Notes under the pieces: generated by a model | What the model was told of the DNA's origin: nothing | The model's database searches: none | Seen by the model: the letters and a program-made list of their open reading frames with translations, nothing else | Origin: Lytechinus pictus | Lineage: Eukaryota | Direction of reading: 5' to 3' | DNA: 60,000 bases | NCBI RefSeq assembly: GCF_037042905.1 | Contig: NC_087245.1 | Span: forward strand, 17,362,001 to 17,422,000 | Translations under genes and position numbers: made by a program | Shown: positions 25,883 through 60,000 of the stretch, piece by piece | Position numbering within the stretch: the first letter of the stretch is position 1 | Layout: every line of letters begins with the position of its first letter

Positions 25883-31878
<5,996 letters not shown>

Positions 31879-38310: not shown

Positions 38311-38816
38311 ATGATAATAATAATCCGCATTTATATAGCGCTTAACATATTGGAACGACGTTTCTAAGTGCTTTACACGGGAGCGTTTCATGAAAGGACT
38401 TGTCAGACGTTTTATCCGACAAGTCCTATTTTATCCGACAGTTACCATAGTAACATTGCTTATCAGCCAATCAAAATCAAGGAAAGTTGTCAAATCTGAC
38501 AACATGTCGGACAAAAATGTTGATGAAACGCTCCCCATATATATTATTATCCCGGTCATCGGGTCCTTGCATACCCGCATACAATGTATGCACCGTCTCC
38601 ACTCCCTGGGGAGCATTCCAACAAGAATTCCAAGACTCAATTGCTAGGCATACTACATATGCTTTCGCATCCTACCGGGTACCCATTTGACATCTGGGTG
38701 GAGAGTGGCAAATTGTGGATTGACGCCTTGCCAAAGGACGCTAGGCCATGGTGGGATTCGAACACACGACCCTCTGATTACGAGGCGAGAGTCAGAACCG
38801 CTTCACCACGGTGCTG
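38311..38816 (-). mobile_element. tRNA-derived SINE interrupted by a MITE
   Basis: Minus strand CGTGGTGAAGCGG...GTTCGAATCCC...TGCCACTCTCCACCCAG...GGGTACCCGG; tail AAGCGCTATATAAATGCGG(ATT)n. Confidence 0.85.
38379..38535. mobile_element. Harbinger-like MITE within the SINE tail
   Basis: TIR GGGAGCGTTTCAT / ATGAAACGCTCCC; flanks CAC/CAT. Confidence 0.8.
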
Positions 38817-40599
38817 CGAAAAGATGGGGCGTGGAAAAGGGGACCGTAAGTTGGTGTACTGGTGGAGGTTTGGTGGGATGGTCACTATAAGGGAAAAAAA
38901 TTTATTAAGGATAAAGTTAACTCAGTGCCACTTTAATAATCGAATGTGTAGCATTTTCCAACATGTTTATTTTTCATCAAATTCTCTTTTTCTGACCAAT
39001 TTTACTTTTAGGCACGCCAGAACTATCAATTCGTCATTTACTAAAAATTATTTTAATTCGGGTTCGCTCGCCTGGCTCGATCGCATCATTTCCAAATAGT
39101 GCGCAATTATCTAACATTTATCCCCCTCGAAAGGTTGACCTCGTTACGGCTCTGGGGTGGATAGAAAGCTAATAGAATACTGTGTTGTTTAAAAAATGAC
39201 TAAATATCGCTTCACATTCCTACAGCCAGCCAATTGGAGTCTCATCAACGGCCATATGCAGCGAAGGGAGAGGTGGTGCACTCCCAGAAATTTAGAAAAT
39301 TTATATTCTCACTGAAATGGCAACACATTTTCTTTTTTATAATTCTGTTTTCATTATAACAATTTGAAGTAAATCACAAAATTTACAAATGATTATTAGG
39401 TGATTGCAAATCACATAAACACAAGTTGGTTACAAAAAAGACAAAACAACAACAATAATGATAGGATAATCCCTACCCACTTATCCTTCCCCTCCCCTAA
39501 AAGGAATGTTGCAAAGTGATGACTTCTTACCAGTGTTATCTAAACAGAGATAGGTGATTTGGTAAATAAAGTAGACAAAACAAGATATACAAGCTATGAT
39601 TATGGAGGTTTTTAAACGAACAAGTATAACGAGGAAATATTCCAAGTCTTGTTTTTTTTTTAACAAATGTTTTAAGAAAGCAAAACTTGGAGGATTATTC
39701 TTAAATTTACATGTATGAATAAACTTCAAAAGTAAAAAAAAAAGAAAAAAAAAAGGATGAAATGAACTTATCAGTTGAGAGTCCGAACATTTTTTAAAAT
39801 TAGAACCATTTATTTGAACTTTCACATACACAAAAACAGGTGGACTATTGTTTCCTTACTTTTATCACAAAAAACACAATCATGACATTTGGTGAATCCT
39901 TAAATTTAATCTTATATAAGAAATCATTTAATGCTATGGCTTTATGAAAAATCTTAAAATAGAATGATCTTAATTTAGTATCAATGGTACAAAAAAAATT
40001 GTATAATGTACCTTTTCCCAATTGATAGTCCCTGGTATTGGTAAACGGATCCCAATAAGAGTTTCTTTTGTCAGGTGTGTGTGATCCCTTAAATAAATTG
40101 TATGAATTTCTGGGGACTTTTTTTATAACTCAACAATTTATGTACAATTGTTTAATGAACACGGATAATATCAGGGCCAAAATTCACCAAGCATTCTTCA
40201 GGGATGCACTTAATCAAAAAGATTTATTTCCTTCTGTCTGTTTGGGGGTTCCAAAATCTAACACAGGCTCTTCAAAGAGTTTGTGACCTAAAAGAGGATT
40301 AAACAAGTCTGACATTATTAAGACATTTCTCTCATGCCACACTGGATAATTAAAATACTGTTTAGTTTTTGAACGAATGAATTTGTTATACCACAGAAGT
40401 TGACAACCACTCAAATCTGAAATTTTTTTATTCACTTCATAACCATTGATTTTGGTAGCATATTAGATTAGGAACCTCCTGGACAATTTCTGGACATTCT
40501 TGGTGCCTGGTGTGAGTGTAGTAAGGATACCATTTTCGGGGGTCAGCTAAATCTGAGTCTCACAGCAGCCATACTGGATTTACATTGTACAATCAATGT

Positions 40600-43500
40600 A
40601 CAAGCAAACTCTTTCATGTTCGGCCGGCCATGCCAACATTGGACCCTTCTCTTAGAATGCCCTATTATACTCTGTTATAACAATGGAGATTACCCTTGTC
40701 ATCTGCATTGTTCTCTTTGTGTTGGCTATATTTTTTTTTAATTGGACTTGATGTCTAACATGTATGACTTAGCTACACAACATGGTGTAGGTACACGGCT
40801 TGTCTATGATAGAGAATTTATTCTGCATCTAAACCCACACCGCAGAGAAGTCGACCTTCTCTTACATTCACCGACCTCTCCTCTCCTCTCCTGAAGTCCA
40901 ATCTTTCGACAGGGCAAAAGAGACACAGGAGTCATCGTGGTAAACGCGGAAACAAAGAGAGATTAAAGTTTGCCTATCTCCAAGAGTCTACGTTGACAAT
41001 CGGCCAGGCCGATATGACGTACAAAATGACACAAACAGGAACCTCAACAATCTAGTGAAAGTACCTAAAAAACAAGACCATGATAGTAAACTGAATGTTC
41101 AATTATGGAATTGCAGTTCTGTGATGAATAAGGCTTCCCTCTTGTATGATCATATTCTGGATAGTAATGTTGACATTATGTTCCTAACCGAGACCTGGTT
41201 ACACAGTGATGATCCAGTTGTCATCGGAGAGTGCACACCTGCTGGTTATGCATTCTTGAACGTGGCAAGAGGTGGAAATGATGCCCATGGTGGGCTTGCA
41301 GTAATTTACAAGACTGGATTGAAATTGTCCTCTGTCAACATTTCGTCCTCTCATGACACTTTTGAACTTGCTGCTGTTCTTGATCCCTCAAGTTCTGTAT
41401 GCTATGTTGTCATCTACAGACCTCCTCCCTCAGCAAAGAATGGGAGTTTGAGGAACTGGTTTGTGAGCTGACTACACACACATGGAAGCTCCTCATTCTT
41501 GGCGATTTTAACATGCAGGTGGACACTCCTTCTAAGCCAGATGTATCAGTTTTCTGGAGATCATTGCACAAGCTGGTCTGCAGCAGCACATCACCACACC
41601 AACACACAAACATGGCCACGTCCTTGATCTGGTAATTTCCAGGGGGCCGTTTCATAAAGCTGTTCGTAAGTTAAGAGCGACTTTAAGAACGACTGGTGAT
41701 TCTTTCTTGTGGTAAATGATGCTCACCATTATAATGTTGGTGATTATTTAGCGCGTAAGAAAGGATCACCAGTCGTTCTTAAAGTCGCTCTTAACTTACG
41801 AACAACTTTATGAAACACCCACCAGGATGGATGACTCTCTTGTGTCCAAATGTGAAGTGCTGAATAAACTGTACTCCGATCACTACGTTCTAAGTTGTGT
41901 CATCGACGTAGCTAAACAGCAGCGGTGTGCATCAACATCAATGAGACGTAACTTTCGTGACCTGGACAAGGATTCCTTTCACATCAGTTCACTTTAAGGG
42001 AGGCATTTCGTGATTTCCCTTTTGAAAGTGATGTTAATACCCAGGTGGAGTTCTACAAGAAAACTATTCTGGATGTCCTCAACCAACACTGTCCTGCCAG
42101 CAAGCATGTCCATCGTTTTCGCCCCCATCCTCCTTGGTATACAGATGAGGTCCATCAAGCGAGACGAACACGGCGAAAAATTGAAAGACGTTGGAGAAAG
42201 CTGCGAACACCCGAGAGCCGCCAGCTGTACTTATCTGCAGTTCATGACGTCTGCAACATCATACATAGACAGAAGTCACAGTTCTACACAGACCAGCTAT
42301 GTAGCGCATGTAGCGCGGATATCAAGAATGTGTTCCGTGTTTTCAATACGCTGCTGAACAGATCGCCGACCATTCTTCCTGCAGATACCTCAGCTACATC
42401 GTTACCTGACAGATTTGCCACCTTCTTCACTCAGAAAGTATAGAGAATTAGATCAGATCTTCATGCAGGGAATGCGGAATCTCAAGTTAGTGCCAATGTG
42501 TAACATGAAGATGGAGCAGCGTATCAGCTAAAAGATTTTGATGATGTCACTGCGGAGAGAGTGTACAAGTTCATTCGTTCCGCAACTAATAATTCGTGTT
42601 CGCTAGATCCATTGCCGACATGGCTCTTGAAGGAGAACATTAACACACTACTTCTATATATTGTGTCAATCATCAACACATTTTTGAACAGCGGTCTCTT
42701 TCATGTAGCACTGAGGGAAGCATTGGTTACTCCACTTATCAAGAAATCTAACCTCGATCGTGATAACTTGAAAAACTACAGACCTGTCTCCAATGTACCA
42801 TTTCTTTCCAAAATCATTGAGAGGGCTGCTTTGTCCCAAATCTTGGACTATCTGGATACAAATGATCTGCATGTTAAGAATCGGTCAGCCTACCGACGTG
42901 ACCATAGCACAGAGACTGCTCTCTCAATTGTTCAAAATGACATTCTTCGAGCAATAGACAACAAACTTGTTACATTTGTTGTCTTCCTAGACCTCTCTGC
43001 AGCATTTGACTCCGTCGATCATGACATTCTCCTGAATCTTCTCACTAGTCAATTCGGCATCTTTGGGAATGTGAAGACCTGGTACGACTCTAACCTGAAG
43101 GAACGGAGTTTCAGGCTGAAGGTTGCGAACAAGCTCTCAAAACCAGTTCCTTTGAATTTCGGTGTTCCGCAGGGGTCGGTGGTCGGTCCGCAGCTTTTTA
43201 GTTTGTATACTCAGCCCATGTCAGACATCATCGAACAACATGAAGGTATACATTATCATATCTATGCAGACGACGTGCAGCTGTATATCTCCGCAGACCA
43301 AAAGGACAGACGTGCAGTCGAGCTGGCTCTCACCACATTATCAGTGTGCGTTAGAGGCCTGCAGCGGTGGATGCAGAGCAACATGTTGAAACTGAACTGT
43401 GAAAAAACAGAGTTCCTGGTTGTTGCCAACCCCAGCTATCTCCATCTTGTGTCCGATGTTGGTCTCGTCATTGGTGAAACTGTAGTGCAACCTTCATCTT

Positions 43501-44200
43501 CAGTCAGAAGCCTGGGTGTTGTGATTGACTCCTCCCTGAAGATGAATCGCCACGTTTCATCCCTTTCAAGTTCGCTGCATTTTCATCTCTCAAATATAGC
43601 TCGTATAAGGCCTTTCCTAAGCCAGGCTGCCTGCGAGCATGCTGAGAGCTTTGATCACATCAAGAATTGACTATGCAAACTCCCTGCTATGTGGTACATC
43701 TTCGGCTAACATCCAGCGACTTCAACGAGCTCAGAATCGTGCAGCCAAATTGGTATTCCTTGCCAAGAAGCGTGATCATGCCTCTCCGCTTCTATATCAA
43801 TTACACTGGCTTCCTGTCAAAATCATTGCCTACAAATGCTCCATCCTATCTTAATGACCTAATTTCTCTGTACCAGAATGAAAGGCGTGGACTACGATCA
43901 GGTAATGATACCACTCTGTTGGCAAGGTCAAGAACTGCTACCTCCTCAGGGGACCGATCGTTCGCTGCTGCCGCGCCACGCCTTTGGAACCAGGTCCCCG
44001 CTGCATCCGTGAATCGTCTGGGAGCATTTCTGCGGTCATTAAAGACATTTCTTTTTAATAATTAATTAACTTGCTATTTATGTATGTAAGTATTTTTGCT
44101 TTCTTTCACAATTTTGATTTTGCTCATTTTGTAAAGCGCTGTGATACAATCATTGTGAAGAGTGCTATATAAATACTTATATTGTATTGTATTGTATTGT
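40600..44200 (+). mobile_element. Decayed L2/CR1-group non-LTR retrotransposon (APE endonuclease plus reverse transcriptase); 5' boundary approximate
   Basis: EN motifs LWNCSS, FLTETW, GGLAVIY, IYRPP, LGDFN, SDH; RT motifs NYRPVSN, FLDLSAAFDSVDH, GVPQGSVVGP, YADD; LHWLPV; several stops and frameshifts; 3' GTGCTATATAAAT plus (ATTGT)n tail. Confidence 0.93.
41643..41822. mobile_element. Harbinger-like MITE inserted in the LINE endonuclease
   Basis: TIRs of about 58 bp (GGGGCCGTTTCATAAAG...); CAG target-site duplication at 41640-41642 and 41823-41825. Confidence 0.88.
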
Positions 44201-45571: not shown

Positions 45572-46991
45572 TTAACATATTTGATTTTAGCCCTATGTGA
45601 TTTGAACATTCTAAAACTCAAAATGTGATAATTGATCCATTCAATATCCATGTTTATTATTTAATGAAATATCATTTCTTCTAGTCGAATCAAAATCATA
45701 TTAAGGAAAAGTTATTTATATTAGGAGTGGGCTATGATAAATGGGTGATATTTGGTTTTACTTTTACCTTATCTCAACATGAAATGAAAACACTTTTTTC
45801 TCGGAACCGATCGAGACAAAGAATATTGTCATTTCATGTTGAAATACATTACAAGGAATGAAAAAAAAAACTGTTACCATATCAAAACGGCAAAAAAGGG
45901 GCATTTTGACCCATGTACAGCCAACTCCTATTTATATAAAATTTTATGTAAGACGCCGACAGCGGTTAGAAAAACATGCTTGAAAATTTAAACACATTAT
46001 CATAACTGATATTTAACTACATGACCTACAATTGATTTTCGGACAAAAGAATATTTAAAAAAAATGAATATATTTCTTTTATACCCAATTTTATGTTCAT
46101 CTGGTAGGGTATCATGACAATAATACTTTAGCAAGGATATTGCGTTATGGGAGAATAAAAAAATAATTTTCTCGGAATGGTCTAAAGCGGATCTAATCAT
46201 CTAAAGCCTTTTGCAAACAAAATCTTTATGTATCGTATTATGACGGCAGCAGTTTTCAGTGCTCATAACAAAAGAGCTTATAACGTCGTTTTGTAGAGGG
46301 CGCCAATACGCTTTAGAACCGTAAGTAGCATTAAGTGATTCGATAACATATGTAAAAGGTCATATCATTTCATTTTTTCGGGGGGGGGGGGGGTGTCATA
46401 AATCATTTATTGCGGGTCATCGTGTGTTTATAACACTTGGACATACATCAACGTATCATGGGGTGGGTTTTATGGTCTGATGTAGTACATCGAAATTCAT
46501 GTAATATTCGAGAATGAAGCACTCGTCCCCATGGCATAGAACACATATCGATATCAGTGGGGAAGGAAAAAAATGCTGATGGTTTCAATTCGCTTAGGTT
46601 TTATTAATAATTTATTTTTGTGTATTTTGAAAATCTTTCATTTGACACTCAGAAAAAAATTGAATGTGTAGAATTTATTGTAGAAGTGCATTCTTAATGC
46701 ATGTTATCATCATCAATGTTATTTATACTTATGTATTGGAAGATGTCTGATATTGCGTTTTATTGTAACACTCAAGGAAAAAATAGTGTTAAATTTATGA
46801 GTTATCAAGGTATTCAGCAATTTGTAAAGACATCAAGCTTTCATTTGTTATGTCTATTTTATTTTGTATATGAATTGAAGTTGTCAATAAAAACTACCTA
46901 ATACAAAAAAAGAAGCATGCAATTTGCGCCCTCAATAGGACAATAAAAAGAAGTCACGAGAGTTATGTCCTTAGTTTCGCTCTATGATTTC

Positions 46992-47294
46992 GACCGGGCG
47001 TTGTGGCGTGCGCCTGTAATCCAGCTACATGGAGGTCGGGGTTGGTGGATCGTTTGAGAGCGGGAGTTCTGTATGTCGTCGTTCTATGGCGATCGGGCGT
47101 CCGCGCTAAGCTCGGCATCGATATGGTTACTTGGTCGGAGGATCGGGCAACCAGGTCGCCTAAGGAGGGACGTACTGGCCCAGGGCGGAAACGCAGCAGG
47201 CAAAAGTCCCCGTGTGGAGCAGTAGTGGGATAGCGCCTGTGAATAGTCGGCGGCTTGCAGCCCGTTCAACACAGTGAGACCCAATCCTTTTTTT
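46992..47294 (+). ncRNA. RN7SL: 7SL / signal recognition particle RNA gene
   Basis: 5' Alu domain GACCGGGCGTTGTGGCGTGCGCCTGTAATCCAGCTAC; CTAAGCTCGGCATCGATATGG; helix 8 GCCCAGGGCGGAAACGCAGCAGGC; AGTAGTGGGATAGCGCCTGTGAATAG; about 296 nt ending in a T7 Pol III terminator. Confidence 0.95.
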
Positions 47295-47603
47295 CTTTCT
47301 TGTCGTCAGGTTCGAGTCCGCATTGAGGTGTCTCAATCTTTTTTTTTTTTTTTTTTTTTTTTTTGGGGTGTTTTTTTTTGGGCTGTTTACATTTGATTAC
47401 ATTCCGAGTCTCCTCCCTAAGATTAATCTACTTCTTTTTTCAACCGTCACTCAATTTTCCTCTCTGGCTCTGTATGGTGTTCTTCTTTCCCCTTTCCTCA
47501 TGCAATTATCACCTTCAGTCTCTTCATTTTTAACTCCATTTGGTTCTCCACTCCAGGAAGCTAAATTTAAATTGTCTTTTTCTCACGTTGATATAGACAC
47601 TAT

Positions 47604-47915
47604 GGCCCGTATTCTGAAGTCAGGTTTAAGTTAAACTCAGGTTTAAAGTTGTGGTTTAAGTATGGACAGCCAAAAGTATCAATTTTTTTTATTAAGTTGT
47701 ACGTTTCTTATGTTTGCTGTGCTCTTTCCTGATTCATCGATGGTGAAGACAATAATCTTTATATACTTCCTAGACAATTATGAATGATTTGAGAGCCAAA
47801 TGAGCTGAAATATAATATCCCTACTGTTAGTGATTTATGTAACAATTGGCTGTCCATACTTAAACCACAACTTTAAACCTGAGTTTAAGTTAAACCCGAC
47901 TTCAGAATACGGGCC
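47604..47915. mobile_element. Harbinger-like MITE with about 70-bp TIRs
   Basis: TAT|GGCCCGTATTCTGAAGTC ... GACTTCAGAATACGGGCC|TAT. Confidence 0.9.
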
Positions 47916-48379
47916 TATGTCACTATTCCTCATCGTCTCTCTGTATCTCCCTTCCTCTCTCTCTCTCGATCTCTCTTTCTCTAGCATTAACAATAATCTA
48001 TAAGTTTTTTGTTCTCATTACAAAAAAACGGATTAGGTGCCATTCAAAGGGATCTCCCTCCCTTTTAAAAACCTCAAAGTTCATCTTAAGAAGACTTCTC
48101 TCATTTGCATATTCTCCATCAAAGCTCATGACATTTATGACAGAATTTTAAAGCTGTCATCAAATGTATCTTTATATTCTTAGAAAAATAGTTGTGTAAA
48201 TTATAGACCCATTTTCAAATGAATATCTACCCTGTTAACTTTTTATTTTATTTATCCTGTTTTGTAGTTATGTATTTGAATCATATCACATTGACAAGGA
48301 TATAGATATCATCAACCTACTTACATTTAATGCTTACACTTCCTCTCTCTCTCTAATATATATATATGCACATATGTAA

Positions 48380-48415
<36 letters not shown>

Positions 48416-48469
48416 ATATATAAAAGGAGGCAAATTTTTCGGAGGATCCGCCAGTGATATATATATATA

Positions 48470-49447
48470 CAGTGCGTATCAAAAAAAGTTTACACTTTGA
48501 AAAAGCCCTGGGAATTAAAAAATATACATGTGGGTAATTTTTTCACATATAATCTTGGGTTTGGGTCTCATCTATCTAATGAAAGTAAAAGTTTTGACAG
48601 AATGTTACACTTGAGTGAGCACTGTCCATTTTTGTAAAGCTCGCAGAAATCTGTTTGCGCAGAAATGCTTGTTTTTACGATGTGTAAAGGGGAAAGGGCG
48701 AAATCAAACTTACCCTGCAAAACAATTCTCATCCATTTCCCTTGCACTTTTAGTCAATTGAAATAAAACGGATACATTCAAGCATTTTGTAACAATTTTG
48801 CCCCCCAAATTGAAATTTCAACACTTAGTAAGCACAACCTTTACCTTTTTTGTGCCAGCTGGATCTGATGACATAACTGAATCTGAACAAAAGTTTATAT
48901 CAGACATCTCCAGCATTTTTTCACTAAGTTTGTATCATTTAAAGTGGGTTTACATTTCATTTTTCATTTAATACTTGTTTCTCCACTCTTTTCCCAAGCT
49001 TGACAATGATTAACAAAATGAAAATGAAGCCTAATCTATTTCATGTAAATCACAGCTCAGTGTAAAGCATATATCGTCACGATGGCCTTGGTGTGTGGGG
49101 GGAGTGGGGTGGGGCGCAATGCACTCTTCGAAGTGTTTTGGGCAAGGAATCAACTAAAAACAGGTACAAAATATCATCAAATCAATTTTACTAGCTAAAT
49201 TCCACGTGTTCTTCATGATTAAGGTCTACTGTTATTCGCATAACTATTTCAAAGTTCTGCGCAAATCATTTTTCACTAACTTTTCAAAAGTGGTGCTCAC
49301 TCAAGCGGAAATATTTTTTTACAGTTATATCGTCATTTGCTTCAATGGATCTGTACCAATGTTAAAATGTGGAAAAATCTTCAGGATATTACAAATATAT
49401 AATTTTACAGGATTTTTTCTAAGTGTAATTTTTTTTTATACGCACTG
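48470..49447. mobile_element. Tc1/mariner-like non-autonomous element next to a (TA)n tract
   Basis: TA|CAGTGCGTATCAAAAAAAGTTTACACTT ... AAGTGTAATTTTTTTTTATACGCACTG|TA; no transposase ORF. Confidence 0.85.
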
Positions 49448-50171
49448 TATAATGTAATTCAGGCTTTTATAAGTTATGTTTTTATGAGTTACAACGATCT
49501 CTCTGTCTCTTTCAAAGAAATGTATTTGTCAAAGCTATAAAAATTTTACACACGTTTGAGAACTGAAAAAATGTTGTGTCATGTTCAATGTTACATATTT
49601 TTTTTTTGTGTAATGAAAAGACACATATGCCTATGTCTGAAAATTTGTATGGATAATTTAAGAGCACTCTTAATGCTTTCAGTCTCTCTTTCTAAACAAG
49701 TGGAATGCCCCTGGCAGTCTCGCCTGCATTATGCAATTTGATATAACAGCAGTGCTGACTTTGAAAACAGCTATTAAATAATTATTCACAAAAGAAAACA
49801 GTCATATGATAATAAAATACTATGTCCATTGATCCAACATGAACTTTGACCATGATCATGTGACCTAATATATGTGCAAAACAATCATTCATACTTGATT
49901 ACCCTTACATCTATGTTTCAAGAAAGTCATGTGTAGATCCATAAACTTTTTAAGTTATGATGCCAATCCAACAAATACCCCCAACATGGCCAAAGTTCAT
50001 TGACCCTAAATGACCTTTGATTTTGGTCATGTGACCTGAAACATGCACAAGATATTCAGAGATACATGGTTACTCTTATGTCCAAGTTTTACGAACTAAA
50101 TCTATTAACTTTTAAAGTTATGATCACAATTCCACAAACACCCCTAACATTATCAAAGTTTTTTTACCCTA

Positions 50172-50461
50172 TTAATAATTGGCATTTATATAGCGCTTTA
50201 TCAATCTATGACTGTTCAAAGCGCTTCACAATTATTATTACCCGGTCACTGGATTCATAGCATTTCAAGCAGTCTGTTAGCCACACATTTGCTAAACCAA
50301 CCACAATGATGGTTGTTTCCTAACGGTACCCAATTAGCACCTGGGTGAGAGTGGCAATGTGGATTGACGCCTTGCCAAAGGGCGCTAGGCCATGGTGGGA
50401 TTCGAACACACAACCCTCTGATTACAAGGCGAGAGTCAGAACCGCTACACCACGGCGCTTC
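50172..50461 (-). mobile_element. tRNA-derived SINE nested in the HINE-like element
   Basis: Head nearly identical to 38690-38816; tail AAAGCGCTATATAAATGCC. Confidence 0.85.
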
Positions 50462-50482
50462 TAAATGACCTTTGACCTTGCC

Positions 50483-58900: not shown

Positions 58901-59343
58901 ACCATGGGTTCAAATGATGGTTTTAAAAACCACCTTTGTGAATTTGGGCCAATGGGTTTATTCTCAATTAAAGGGGTACTCCACATTGATAAAAAATTAA
59001 TCTACTTTATCTATTAGCCTTCATACTTTATTTGCAAGAGTTCATTGTTAGCTCCAATATTTATTTCAATATTTTAGAAATATATTTCACTTCAAACAAC
59101 ATAAATGTACATCTCGAAAAGAAAAAAGATATTTTATCTATCATACCTTGTTAGCTACTACAACAACATGACTTGGAGATGTGCAGTAGCGGTTCAATTC
59201 CTTCAACCAGAATTCTAGGTTGTCAAAGGAATGTCTGTTTGTCACATCAAACACCAAGAAACACGCCTGCGTATCACTGAATAATTCATTCCGTACTTCT
59301 TGGTAATCAGGATGGCCAGATATATCCCAAAGATGAACTCTTA
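55925..59343 (-). CDS. RJL-family (DNAJC27/Rbj-like) Ras-superfamily GTPase, 3' three coding exons: complement(join(55925-56024,56702-56772,59147-59343)); 5' exons outside the window
   Basis: Spliced frame RVHLWDISGHPDYQEVRNELFSDTQACFLVFDVT...VVANK|IDIKAKRVVQSDEAMRWATGKKVK|YYETSAFSGEGITRMFTDILQEVMTKSSLGTR*. G3 DxxGH followed by EVRNE is the RJL signature; G4 NKID, G5 ETSA; GT-AG junctions are in phase. Confidence 0.88.
56473..56672. mobile_element. piggyBac-like MITE in an intron of the RJL gene
   Basis: TTAA|CCCTAAATTACC ... GGTAAGTTAGGG|TTAA. Confidence 0.75.
57165..57746. mobile_element. Kolobok-like palindromic MITE (second family)
   Basis: TTAA|AGGAGAATGAAAC ... GTTTCATTCTCCT|TTAA; long internal inverted repeat at ~57270-57350 / 57565-57645. 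Confidence 0.88.
57908..58950. mobile_element. Harbinger-like MITE with its left arm amplified as four ~205-bp tandem copies
   Basis: Ends GGCCCAAA / TTTGGGCC; unit ACAAAGGTGGTTTT... starts at ~57923, 58131, 58338 and 58543; one inverted copy at ~58750-58950. Confidence 0.85.
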
Positions 59344-60000
59344 CTGTAAACAAAGAAAAACATATAACTTGAAGATGAACTATATGGCATCTAATAATTG
59401 CTAAGTTTTTTAAGGGATCTGTCCATTTGAAAGTTTTTTGTATATGATGCCACTCAAATGCTGAGAAAAATCTCCCTCAAATCTCACTGCAAAACACTAA
59501 CAAACTTACAGCAAATTACAAATTAACATTAACACTAAACAGATTGCATAGTAAGTGTATTGACCTTTCTTCGATCTGCTATCATTAACTTTATCTACAT
59601 GTAGGCCTACATGATGTACTATTCAAAATTTCAAATTTTATTAGTTTACTCCTGTGGCAAGCAAAAAAGTTATAGTGTTATAAATGTATCACCATGTATG
59701 GCTAGTCTTTTTAGAAGACACCCTCAGACTTCAAATAAGCCTCATCAATTCAGTAATACTGTGTTGAAAAAGAAAAAAATACTTACAATCAACATTAGAT
59801 ATATTCTGTATTTTAAAGCCATAGTCAACTCCAACTGTTGGCTGGTAACCATGAGAAAACTGTTCAAAGAAACATAAAGGAGATGTTTAAAATTTAAACG
59901 AACTTAAAAAAAGATATATTGCTACATGAATTTGTATAATTTATACAAAGTGGAATGCCAGTGTCCAGATATAATAGTCAACTTAATTGTCTACTTTTCT

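Follow-up and report, generated by a model that had tools for sequence, protein, structure and literature searches.

We find that the sole 7SL gene of the window (the whole stretch of DNA analysed here, 60 kb in length) is followed, just past its Pol III terminator, by an exact extragenic B box, GGTTCGAGTCC, and that the same 11 letters recur at nearly the same place behind a 7SL gene of a close relative, organism D. The box is real and far beyond chance; it is probably under selection, and restricted to this lineage. The most plausible reason why the 11-mer was kept while its surroundings diverged is selection for TFIIIC binding, and this applies both to orthologous loci and to boxes gained separately. 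We hold it to be an evenly balanced proposition that GGTTCGAGTCC is a selected, high-affinity extragenic TFIIIC (tauB) site serving the 7SL gene in front of it; its role would most likely be that of an auxiliary booster on some 7SL copies of the lineage, not that of an obligatory part of the promoter.

A 7SL gene whose consensus B box lies beyond its terminator

Rfam matches positions 46993-47290 (+) to Metazoa_SRP (RF00017) at 279.7 bits, against a gathering score of 70, over model positions 1-299 of 299. This is a full-length metazoan 7SL (SRP) RNA gene, present in one copy and the only RNA gene that Rfam finds in the 60 kb. Its 3' end is a Pol III T-run terminator, without the poly-A tail of a retrocopy. 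The elements in and around the gene are collected in Table 1.

Table 1. Elements of the 7SL gene and its flanks, in window coordinates
Feature	Position	Strand	Remarks
-30 to -24 region, TTATGTC	46963..46969	+	TATA not canonical; a weak TATA-like heptamer at best
Internal A-box equivalent, GGCGTTGTGG	46997..47006	+	+5 to +14; 8/10 letters as in human 7SL box A, in the available part of PMC7245038
Degenerate internal B-box position, AGTTCTGTATG	47065..47075	+	7/11 letters as in human 7SL box B, from an excerpted source
Second 9-mer B-box core, GTTCAACAC	47264..47272	+	Within the 3' helix of the gene
Pol III terminator T7	47288..47294	+	From sequence; RNA depth of run X22 ends there
14-nt spacer, unconserved	47295..47308	+	1/14 letters as in the spacer of organism D record 3
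Exact extragenic B box, GGTTCGAGTCC	47309..47319	+ (gene orientation)	+22 from the first terminator T
6-bp hairpin	47322..47337	+	Centroid fold; no stability gain over shuffles, z -0.48 to -0.56
T26 run	47339..47364	+	From sequence

The internal elements of the gene depart from the Pol III consensus. The A-box equivalent is atypical, being unmatched by TRGCNNARYGG at up to one mismatch, and the internal B position lacks the last invariant C, which its human counterpart retains. For comparison, an excerpt of PMC7245038 gives the internal box B of human 7SL as AGTTCTGGGCT and that of hagfish as AGCTCTGCGCT. The second core in the 3' helix may be a chance occurrence, and it varies at 47270 and 47272 among the variants expressed in run X22. 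The only full-consensus box of this gene is the downstream one. Upstream, we found no TATA-like word at about -38 to -19, no TGACGTCA site evident in the sequence at -50 and no strong B box in the 690 nt before the gene. An earlier note on this DNA had described an exact B box about 15 nt past T7 with a long T-run behind it, a degenerate internal B position, the lack of a clear upstream TATA and the lack of a separate tRNA; these descriptions hold, with a distance of 14 nt, a run of T26 and, for the tRNA, the null results given below.

The pattern GGTTCGANTCC has one exact match on both strands of the 60 kb, namely GGTTCGAGTCC at 47309-47319; the seven window matches at one mismatch belong for the most part to copies of SINEs and repeats. 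Exact matches are predicted at 3.6e-7 per position, or 1.8e-5 per 50-nt flank, by a first-order Markov model of the window. The looser 9-mer core GWTCRANNC has a chance of about 1% in 50 nt and shows no enrichment across the window (21 found versus 26.7 expected). The box stands 302 nt after the A-box equivalent and is followed by 19 nt and then T26, which is possibly a back-up terminator or ordinary poly-T.

The box does not match several familiar sources of a B box in the features examined. ARAGORN finds no tRNA gene in the whole window, Rfam returns no tRNA or vault RNA match in 46300-48000 at E up to 10, and the bases around GGTTCGAGTCC form only 3/5 pairs of a T-arm stem, with both mismatches next to the box; these results speak against a tRNA gene or fragment. 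A vault RNA gene does not fit, since T7 precedes the box, there is no Rfam match and no A-box match at one mismatch or fewer occurs in 45890-49826. Nor does the box look like part of a tRNA-derived SINE: no SINE body follows it, only the 19 nt and T26, and it differs from the box of the window's SINE copies, which reads TGTTCGAATCC. By blastn, 47295-47338 has no match and no second copy elsewhere in the 60-kb window. A structured RNA past the terminator is rejected as well (z -0.17 to -0.57 against shuffles).

The window contains other elements of interest. Two copies of a tRNA-headed SINE, 93% alike, lie at 38714-38824 and 50358-50468 (minus strand); the element has A and B boxes as well as a conserved body. 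A MITE-like element at 47593-47926, 270 nt behind the B box, has 81-nt inverted arms that are 91% complementary and an apparent 3-bp target duplication. Nuclear receptor exons with a C4 zinc finger (Pfam zf-C4) lie at 26666-29340 and presumably belong to a receptor resembling the NR4A group; positions 40944-44065 contain a decayed non-LTR retrotransposon whose endonuclease and reverse transcriptase frames are fragmented, and a Ras-family small GTPase exon lies at 59141-59476 (minus strand).

The 7SL RNA ends before the box

Run X22 consists of raw, rRNA-depleted, stranded reads from organism A, of which about 6% were read. In this sample 293,999 reads match 47100-47345, 35,659 of them at 99% likeness or more to the window's gene. 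Through most of the gene portion the depth exceeds 100,000; it drops to 44 across 47289-47297 and to 0 across 47298-47345. No read among the 293,999 extends beyond 47297, which places the box outside the RNA and T26 out of regular use, with the caveat that both hold if organism A is the window's species or very near it, as it probably is (its run X1 holds 0.39 of the words). If organism A is another species, read-through would show only among the 269 loose ends of X22. At 47159, 80% of X22 reads differ from the window, and in 47133-47278 there are about 20 variant positions, each affecting 3-80% of reads; organism A co-expresses several 7SL gene variants.

The same 11-mer behind a 7SL gene of a close relative

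In none of the 24 runs that the search listed did the share of words exceed 0.39, which is roughly what the gene part contributes. Four of the 24 were placed on 47100-47345 at 80% likeness, two 'echinoderm metagenome' rows being among those left out; runs X4 and X5 end at the 3' end of the gene and yield no flank. Run X14 (organism D, probably DNA) gives six contigs that are 95-100% alike to the 3' part of the window's 7SL. All three X14 contigs that cover 47247 have G for T, and no X14 contig follows the window's flank. Near-identity in the gene, the absence of the window's flank and the G at 47247 together indicate that organism D is close and probably a different species.

Three X14 contigs depart from the window at the terminator. 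One of these (record 3; 125 nt, depth 31) is continuous with 50 nt of the 7SL 3' end and has 30 visible flank letters. It carries the 11-mer identical to GGTTCGAGTCC 17 nt past its T-run, at +24 from the first terminator T as against +22 in the window. The spacers of the two flanks agree in 1/14 letters (ungapped, right-aligned), and beyond the box the two visible letters are different as well, both comparisons being made by eye. The exact word would arise by chance in 30 visible letters at about 1e-6 per flank under the window's Markov model; with uniform composition the figure for two flanks is 9.5e-6. The D box, unlike that of the window, is bordered by two additional complementary pairs in the manner of a T-arm (4 visible pairs).

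A second contig (record 5) has TGATCGAGGGC at exactly +22, with 7/11 letters alike and the last invariant C missing; 30 of its 230 flank letters are visible, and 14 letters are readable in record 6. The exact box is therefore present in one of two readable D flanks, the other being without a canonical box in its first 30 nt. The same 11-mer at nearly the same place next to an unrelated spacer points to selection on a TFIIIC site. Such selection on GGTTCGAGTCC would suit a promoter element or an insulator alike, as the two alternatives of the earlier note, TFIIIC recruited from downstream or an insulator, had it.

Distant 7SL genes do without the box

Scans of metagenomes and genomes with the 7SL motif gave 54 + 1 = 55 loci. 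Forty of these were put to Rfam, where 35 matched Metazoa_SRP, mostly at full length, and the remaining 15 loci were assessed on their sequence. All scanned 7SL genes are distant, at most 81% identical to the window's gene. The flank count comprises 44 loci, each of which has a terminator followed by 100 nt or more of flank; 4 of these duplicate another and many come from shared species (29 types at 95% among 40 full genes). The 11 loci left out are L039 (not 7SL), L016, L030, L041 and L033 (gene fragments), L012, L025 and L031 (flank too short), L018 (no terminator) and L004 and L014 (only TTT; divergent 7SL). In L004 and L014 a core does occur about 40-50 nt downstream, within a palindrome.

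None of the 44 distant flanks has a gene-strand B-box core within 100 nt of the terminator. Shuffles predict 0.56 flanks with the core, so that 0/44 means no enrichment and not depletion. L036, the sister of the window's 7SL in the tree (99/99 support, 79% identical), has no canonical downstream box. Inside the gene, GWTCRANNC is absent from all 43 other 7SL genes, and a TATA-like word at about -38 to -19 is present in 9 and missing from 20 of the 29 types. A degenerate internal B and a missing TATA are thus normal for 7SL and neither demonstrates a need for the downstream box; we reject both as proof of need, and the support that the earlier note drew from them is weak. With 0/44 distant flanks carrying the core despite an equally degenerate internal B, 7SL genes work without the box. 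It is not a general animal 7SL requirement, and the comparison of 3' flanks that had been suggested as a check bears out the earlier note in part, with the exact box in one of the two readable D flanks and a core in none of the 44. In viral contigs the 7SL motif has no matches, and eight matches to a 16-mer of the 3' end were rejected as chance words of 15-19 nt.

Other features of these loci deserve mention. L036, at about +50 to +63 past its terminator, and the record 5 flank of X14 have an 8-letter word in common, CGAGGGCC, with GGT three letters before it in both (11/14 alike); this may be a variant form of downstream motif in echinoderm-like 7SL genes, or chance. L036 also has TTCGAGTCC, nine letters of the same B-box word, at about -29 to -21, a TATA-like position; the TATA-like consensus of rodent 4.5SH is TTCGAGTA in the available text of PMC7279448. 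At the contig end of L017 (1100-1125) a tandem pair of B boxes, each within a T-arm-like stem, precedes the 7SL gene by 190 and 216 nt; Rfam calls no tRNA there. A U3 snoRNA gene stands head-to-head with 7SL in L002, L006, L024, L028 and L037, a repeated small-RNA cluster, with 5S rRNA downstream in L006, L024 and L037. L004, L014, L046 and L052 hold divergent 7SL genes (121-125 bits, long branch) beside U6 or U5 and tRNA genes and are probably from a non-animal eukaryote. The animal 7SL gene of L055 comes from a bacterial genome assembly (902-nt contig) and is host contamination.

A model for the downstream box and its alternatives

If the box serves the gene in front of it, tauB of TFIIIC would anchor on the downstream box and tauA would reach the 7SL A box (+5 to +14) over about 300 bp, by looping or around the chromatin of the gene body. 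TFIIIC would place TFIIIB upstream of this TATA-less gene and might keep the locus in an open, reloaded state, the part that the downstream B box plays at yeast SNR6. TFIIIC binding, its action on the 7SL A box and its chromatin role are each steps that we infer. The exact consensus, the gene orientation and the position 14 nt past T7 support a booster. Against it weigh a conservation that consists of one 125-nt contig with 30 flank letters, the T-arm-like pairs around the D box, which allow a tRNA-derived origin, and the 302-nt gap from A to B, far above tRNA spacing and with no TATA to assist as at SNR6. In the available part of PMC10137851, the A-to-B spacing is 32-43 bp in tRNA genes and 52 bp in 7SL. 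Since a canonical box near the terminator is missing from the distant 7SL genes and from one D copy or more, the box is more likely an auxiliary of particular copies than an obligatory element. A stronger version, in which sea urchins rewired 7SL to an SNR6-like split promoter that depends on a B box beyond the terminator, with the best-box copies being the active ones, is tentative and in our judgement rather doubtful; on it, the 7SL head would make a poor promoter by itself.

A selected TFIIIC site need not drive 7SL. It could be an ETC-type barrier or chromatin anchor that shields the gene from its transposon-rich 3' flank, which we consider unlikely. An active Pol III gene acts as a barrier already, and gene orientation and near-equal terminator distance suit a partner of the A box better, though with two cases the argument from orientation is weak. 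The conservation in organism D fits a barrier equally, the MITE-like inverted-repeat element (47593-47926) lies 270 nt downstream and 7SL transcription elsewhere goes on without a box of this kind; as excerpted from PMC3245943, ETC sites are TFIIIC-bound B boxes without Pol III that form boundaries in S. pombe. A functionless remnant of an old tRNA or tRNA-SINE fragment behind the ancestral 7SL is quite unlikely. The T-arm-like stem of the D box, with its 4 visible pairs, and the tRNA-headed SINEs with B boxes that are common in the window (38714-38824, 50358-50468) would agree with such an origin, but neutral sequence would not retain 11/11 letters beside a spacer at 1/14, and the window box has no T-stem, is unlike TGTTCGAATCC, is followed by no SINE body and belongs to a stretch (47295-47338) with no other blastn match in the window.

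Coincidence is very unlikely. It would take a chance motif in the window together with an artefactual match in D, from a chimeric contig or a different neighbouring element, and would have to overcome 1.8e-5 for the window flank alone, about 1e-5 for a second, independent flank, and the continuity of record 3 with 50 nt of the 7SL 3' end at depth 31. In its favour, the D evidence is one contig and 30 letters, the type of run X14 is a guess, no record spans the stretch, and the locus was chosen because the motif was there. We give hardly any weight to the idea that the box is internal to another small Pol III transcript, either vault-like or produced by read-through, that would end at T26. The 3' layout of vault RNA genes is a B box, about 20 nt and then a T-run, which is the layout here, and a 6-bp hairpin precedes T26. 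A transcript from any upstream A box, however, must pass T7, no A-box match within one mismatch occurs in 45890-49826, and neither vault nor any other Rfam family is found there in 46300-48000 at E up to 10. Vault RNA genes have A and B2 boxes in the accessible portion of PMC11185573. The depth of 0 at 47298-47345 also speaks against such an RNA, in one rRNA-depleted run that would miss RNAs too short for the library.

How animal 7SL recruits TFIIIC despite a degenerate internal B is only partly explained, mostly by work on human genes, and a consensus B box behind the terminator provides a natural experiment, with an 11-bp target and a gene three times as long as yeast U6. We found no description of a downstream B box at 7SL in the literature, a weak negative as the classical Pol III journals were mostly outside the scope of the search, and if the stronger version is true, this would to our knowledge be the first animal Pol III gene driven by a downstream extragenic B box. 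A booster would bear on which 7SL copies are active; a barrier would instead amount to a conserved ETC site that keeps a set position next to a Pol III gene.

Comparison with known systems

A second B box just past the terminator is a feature of human vault RNA genes and of Dictyostelium tRNA genes (ex-B), type 2 genes which retain a canonical internal B box, unlike the window's 7SL. Mammalian and hagfish 7SL genes share with it an atypical internal A box, a degenerate internal B and the lack of a canonical TATA; they differ in using upstream sites, and no downstream box is named in the available parts of the sources (PMC7245038, PMC7279448, PMC10137851). The upstream sites of mammalian 7SL genes are given as TATA-like, CRE/ATF and Sp1 sites in an excerpt of PMC7279448. 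ETC sites and isolated B boxes are alike in presenting a consensus B box without tRNA context, to judge from the accessible sections of PMC3245943, PMC5391098 and PMC3159450.

An external promoter of the trypanosome type is ruled out by the lone downstream B box and the lack of a tRNA in the window. Trypanosomatid 7SL genes have boxes supplied by an upstream tRNA or tRNA-like gene. Their snRNA genes, as described in the part of PMC10781861 available, resemble the window's gene in having TFIIIC boxes outside the transcribed gene and differ in drawing both A and B boxes from an upstream tRNA or tRNA-like gene.

The closest parallel is S. cerevisiae SNR6 (U6), which has an internal A box and a B box past the terminator, so that TFIIIC would bridge the gene body in both cases. 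In the available text of PMC13475603, transcription of SNR6 in vivo and on chromatin needs box B and TFIIIC, a positioned nucleosome brings A and B together, and a TATA box lies at -30. SNR6 thus has a TATA and a demonstrated dependence on its box, whereas the window's 7SL is TATA-less and its dependence on the box is putative. The SNR6 B box lies about 120 nt past the terminator; the window's gene is 298 nt long with its box 14 nt past the terminator. On the best reading the window's 7SL would work like the SNR6 promoter, although we do not class it as one, given the missing TATA. If this is true, the SNR6 layout arose again in animals.
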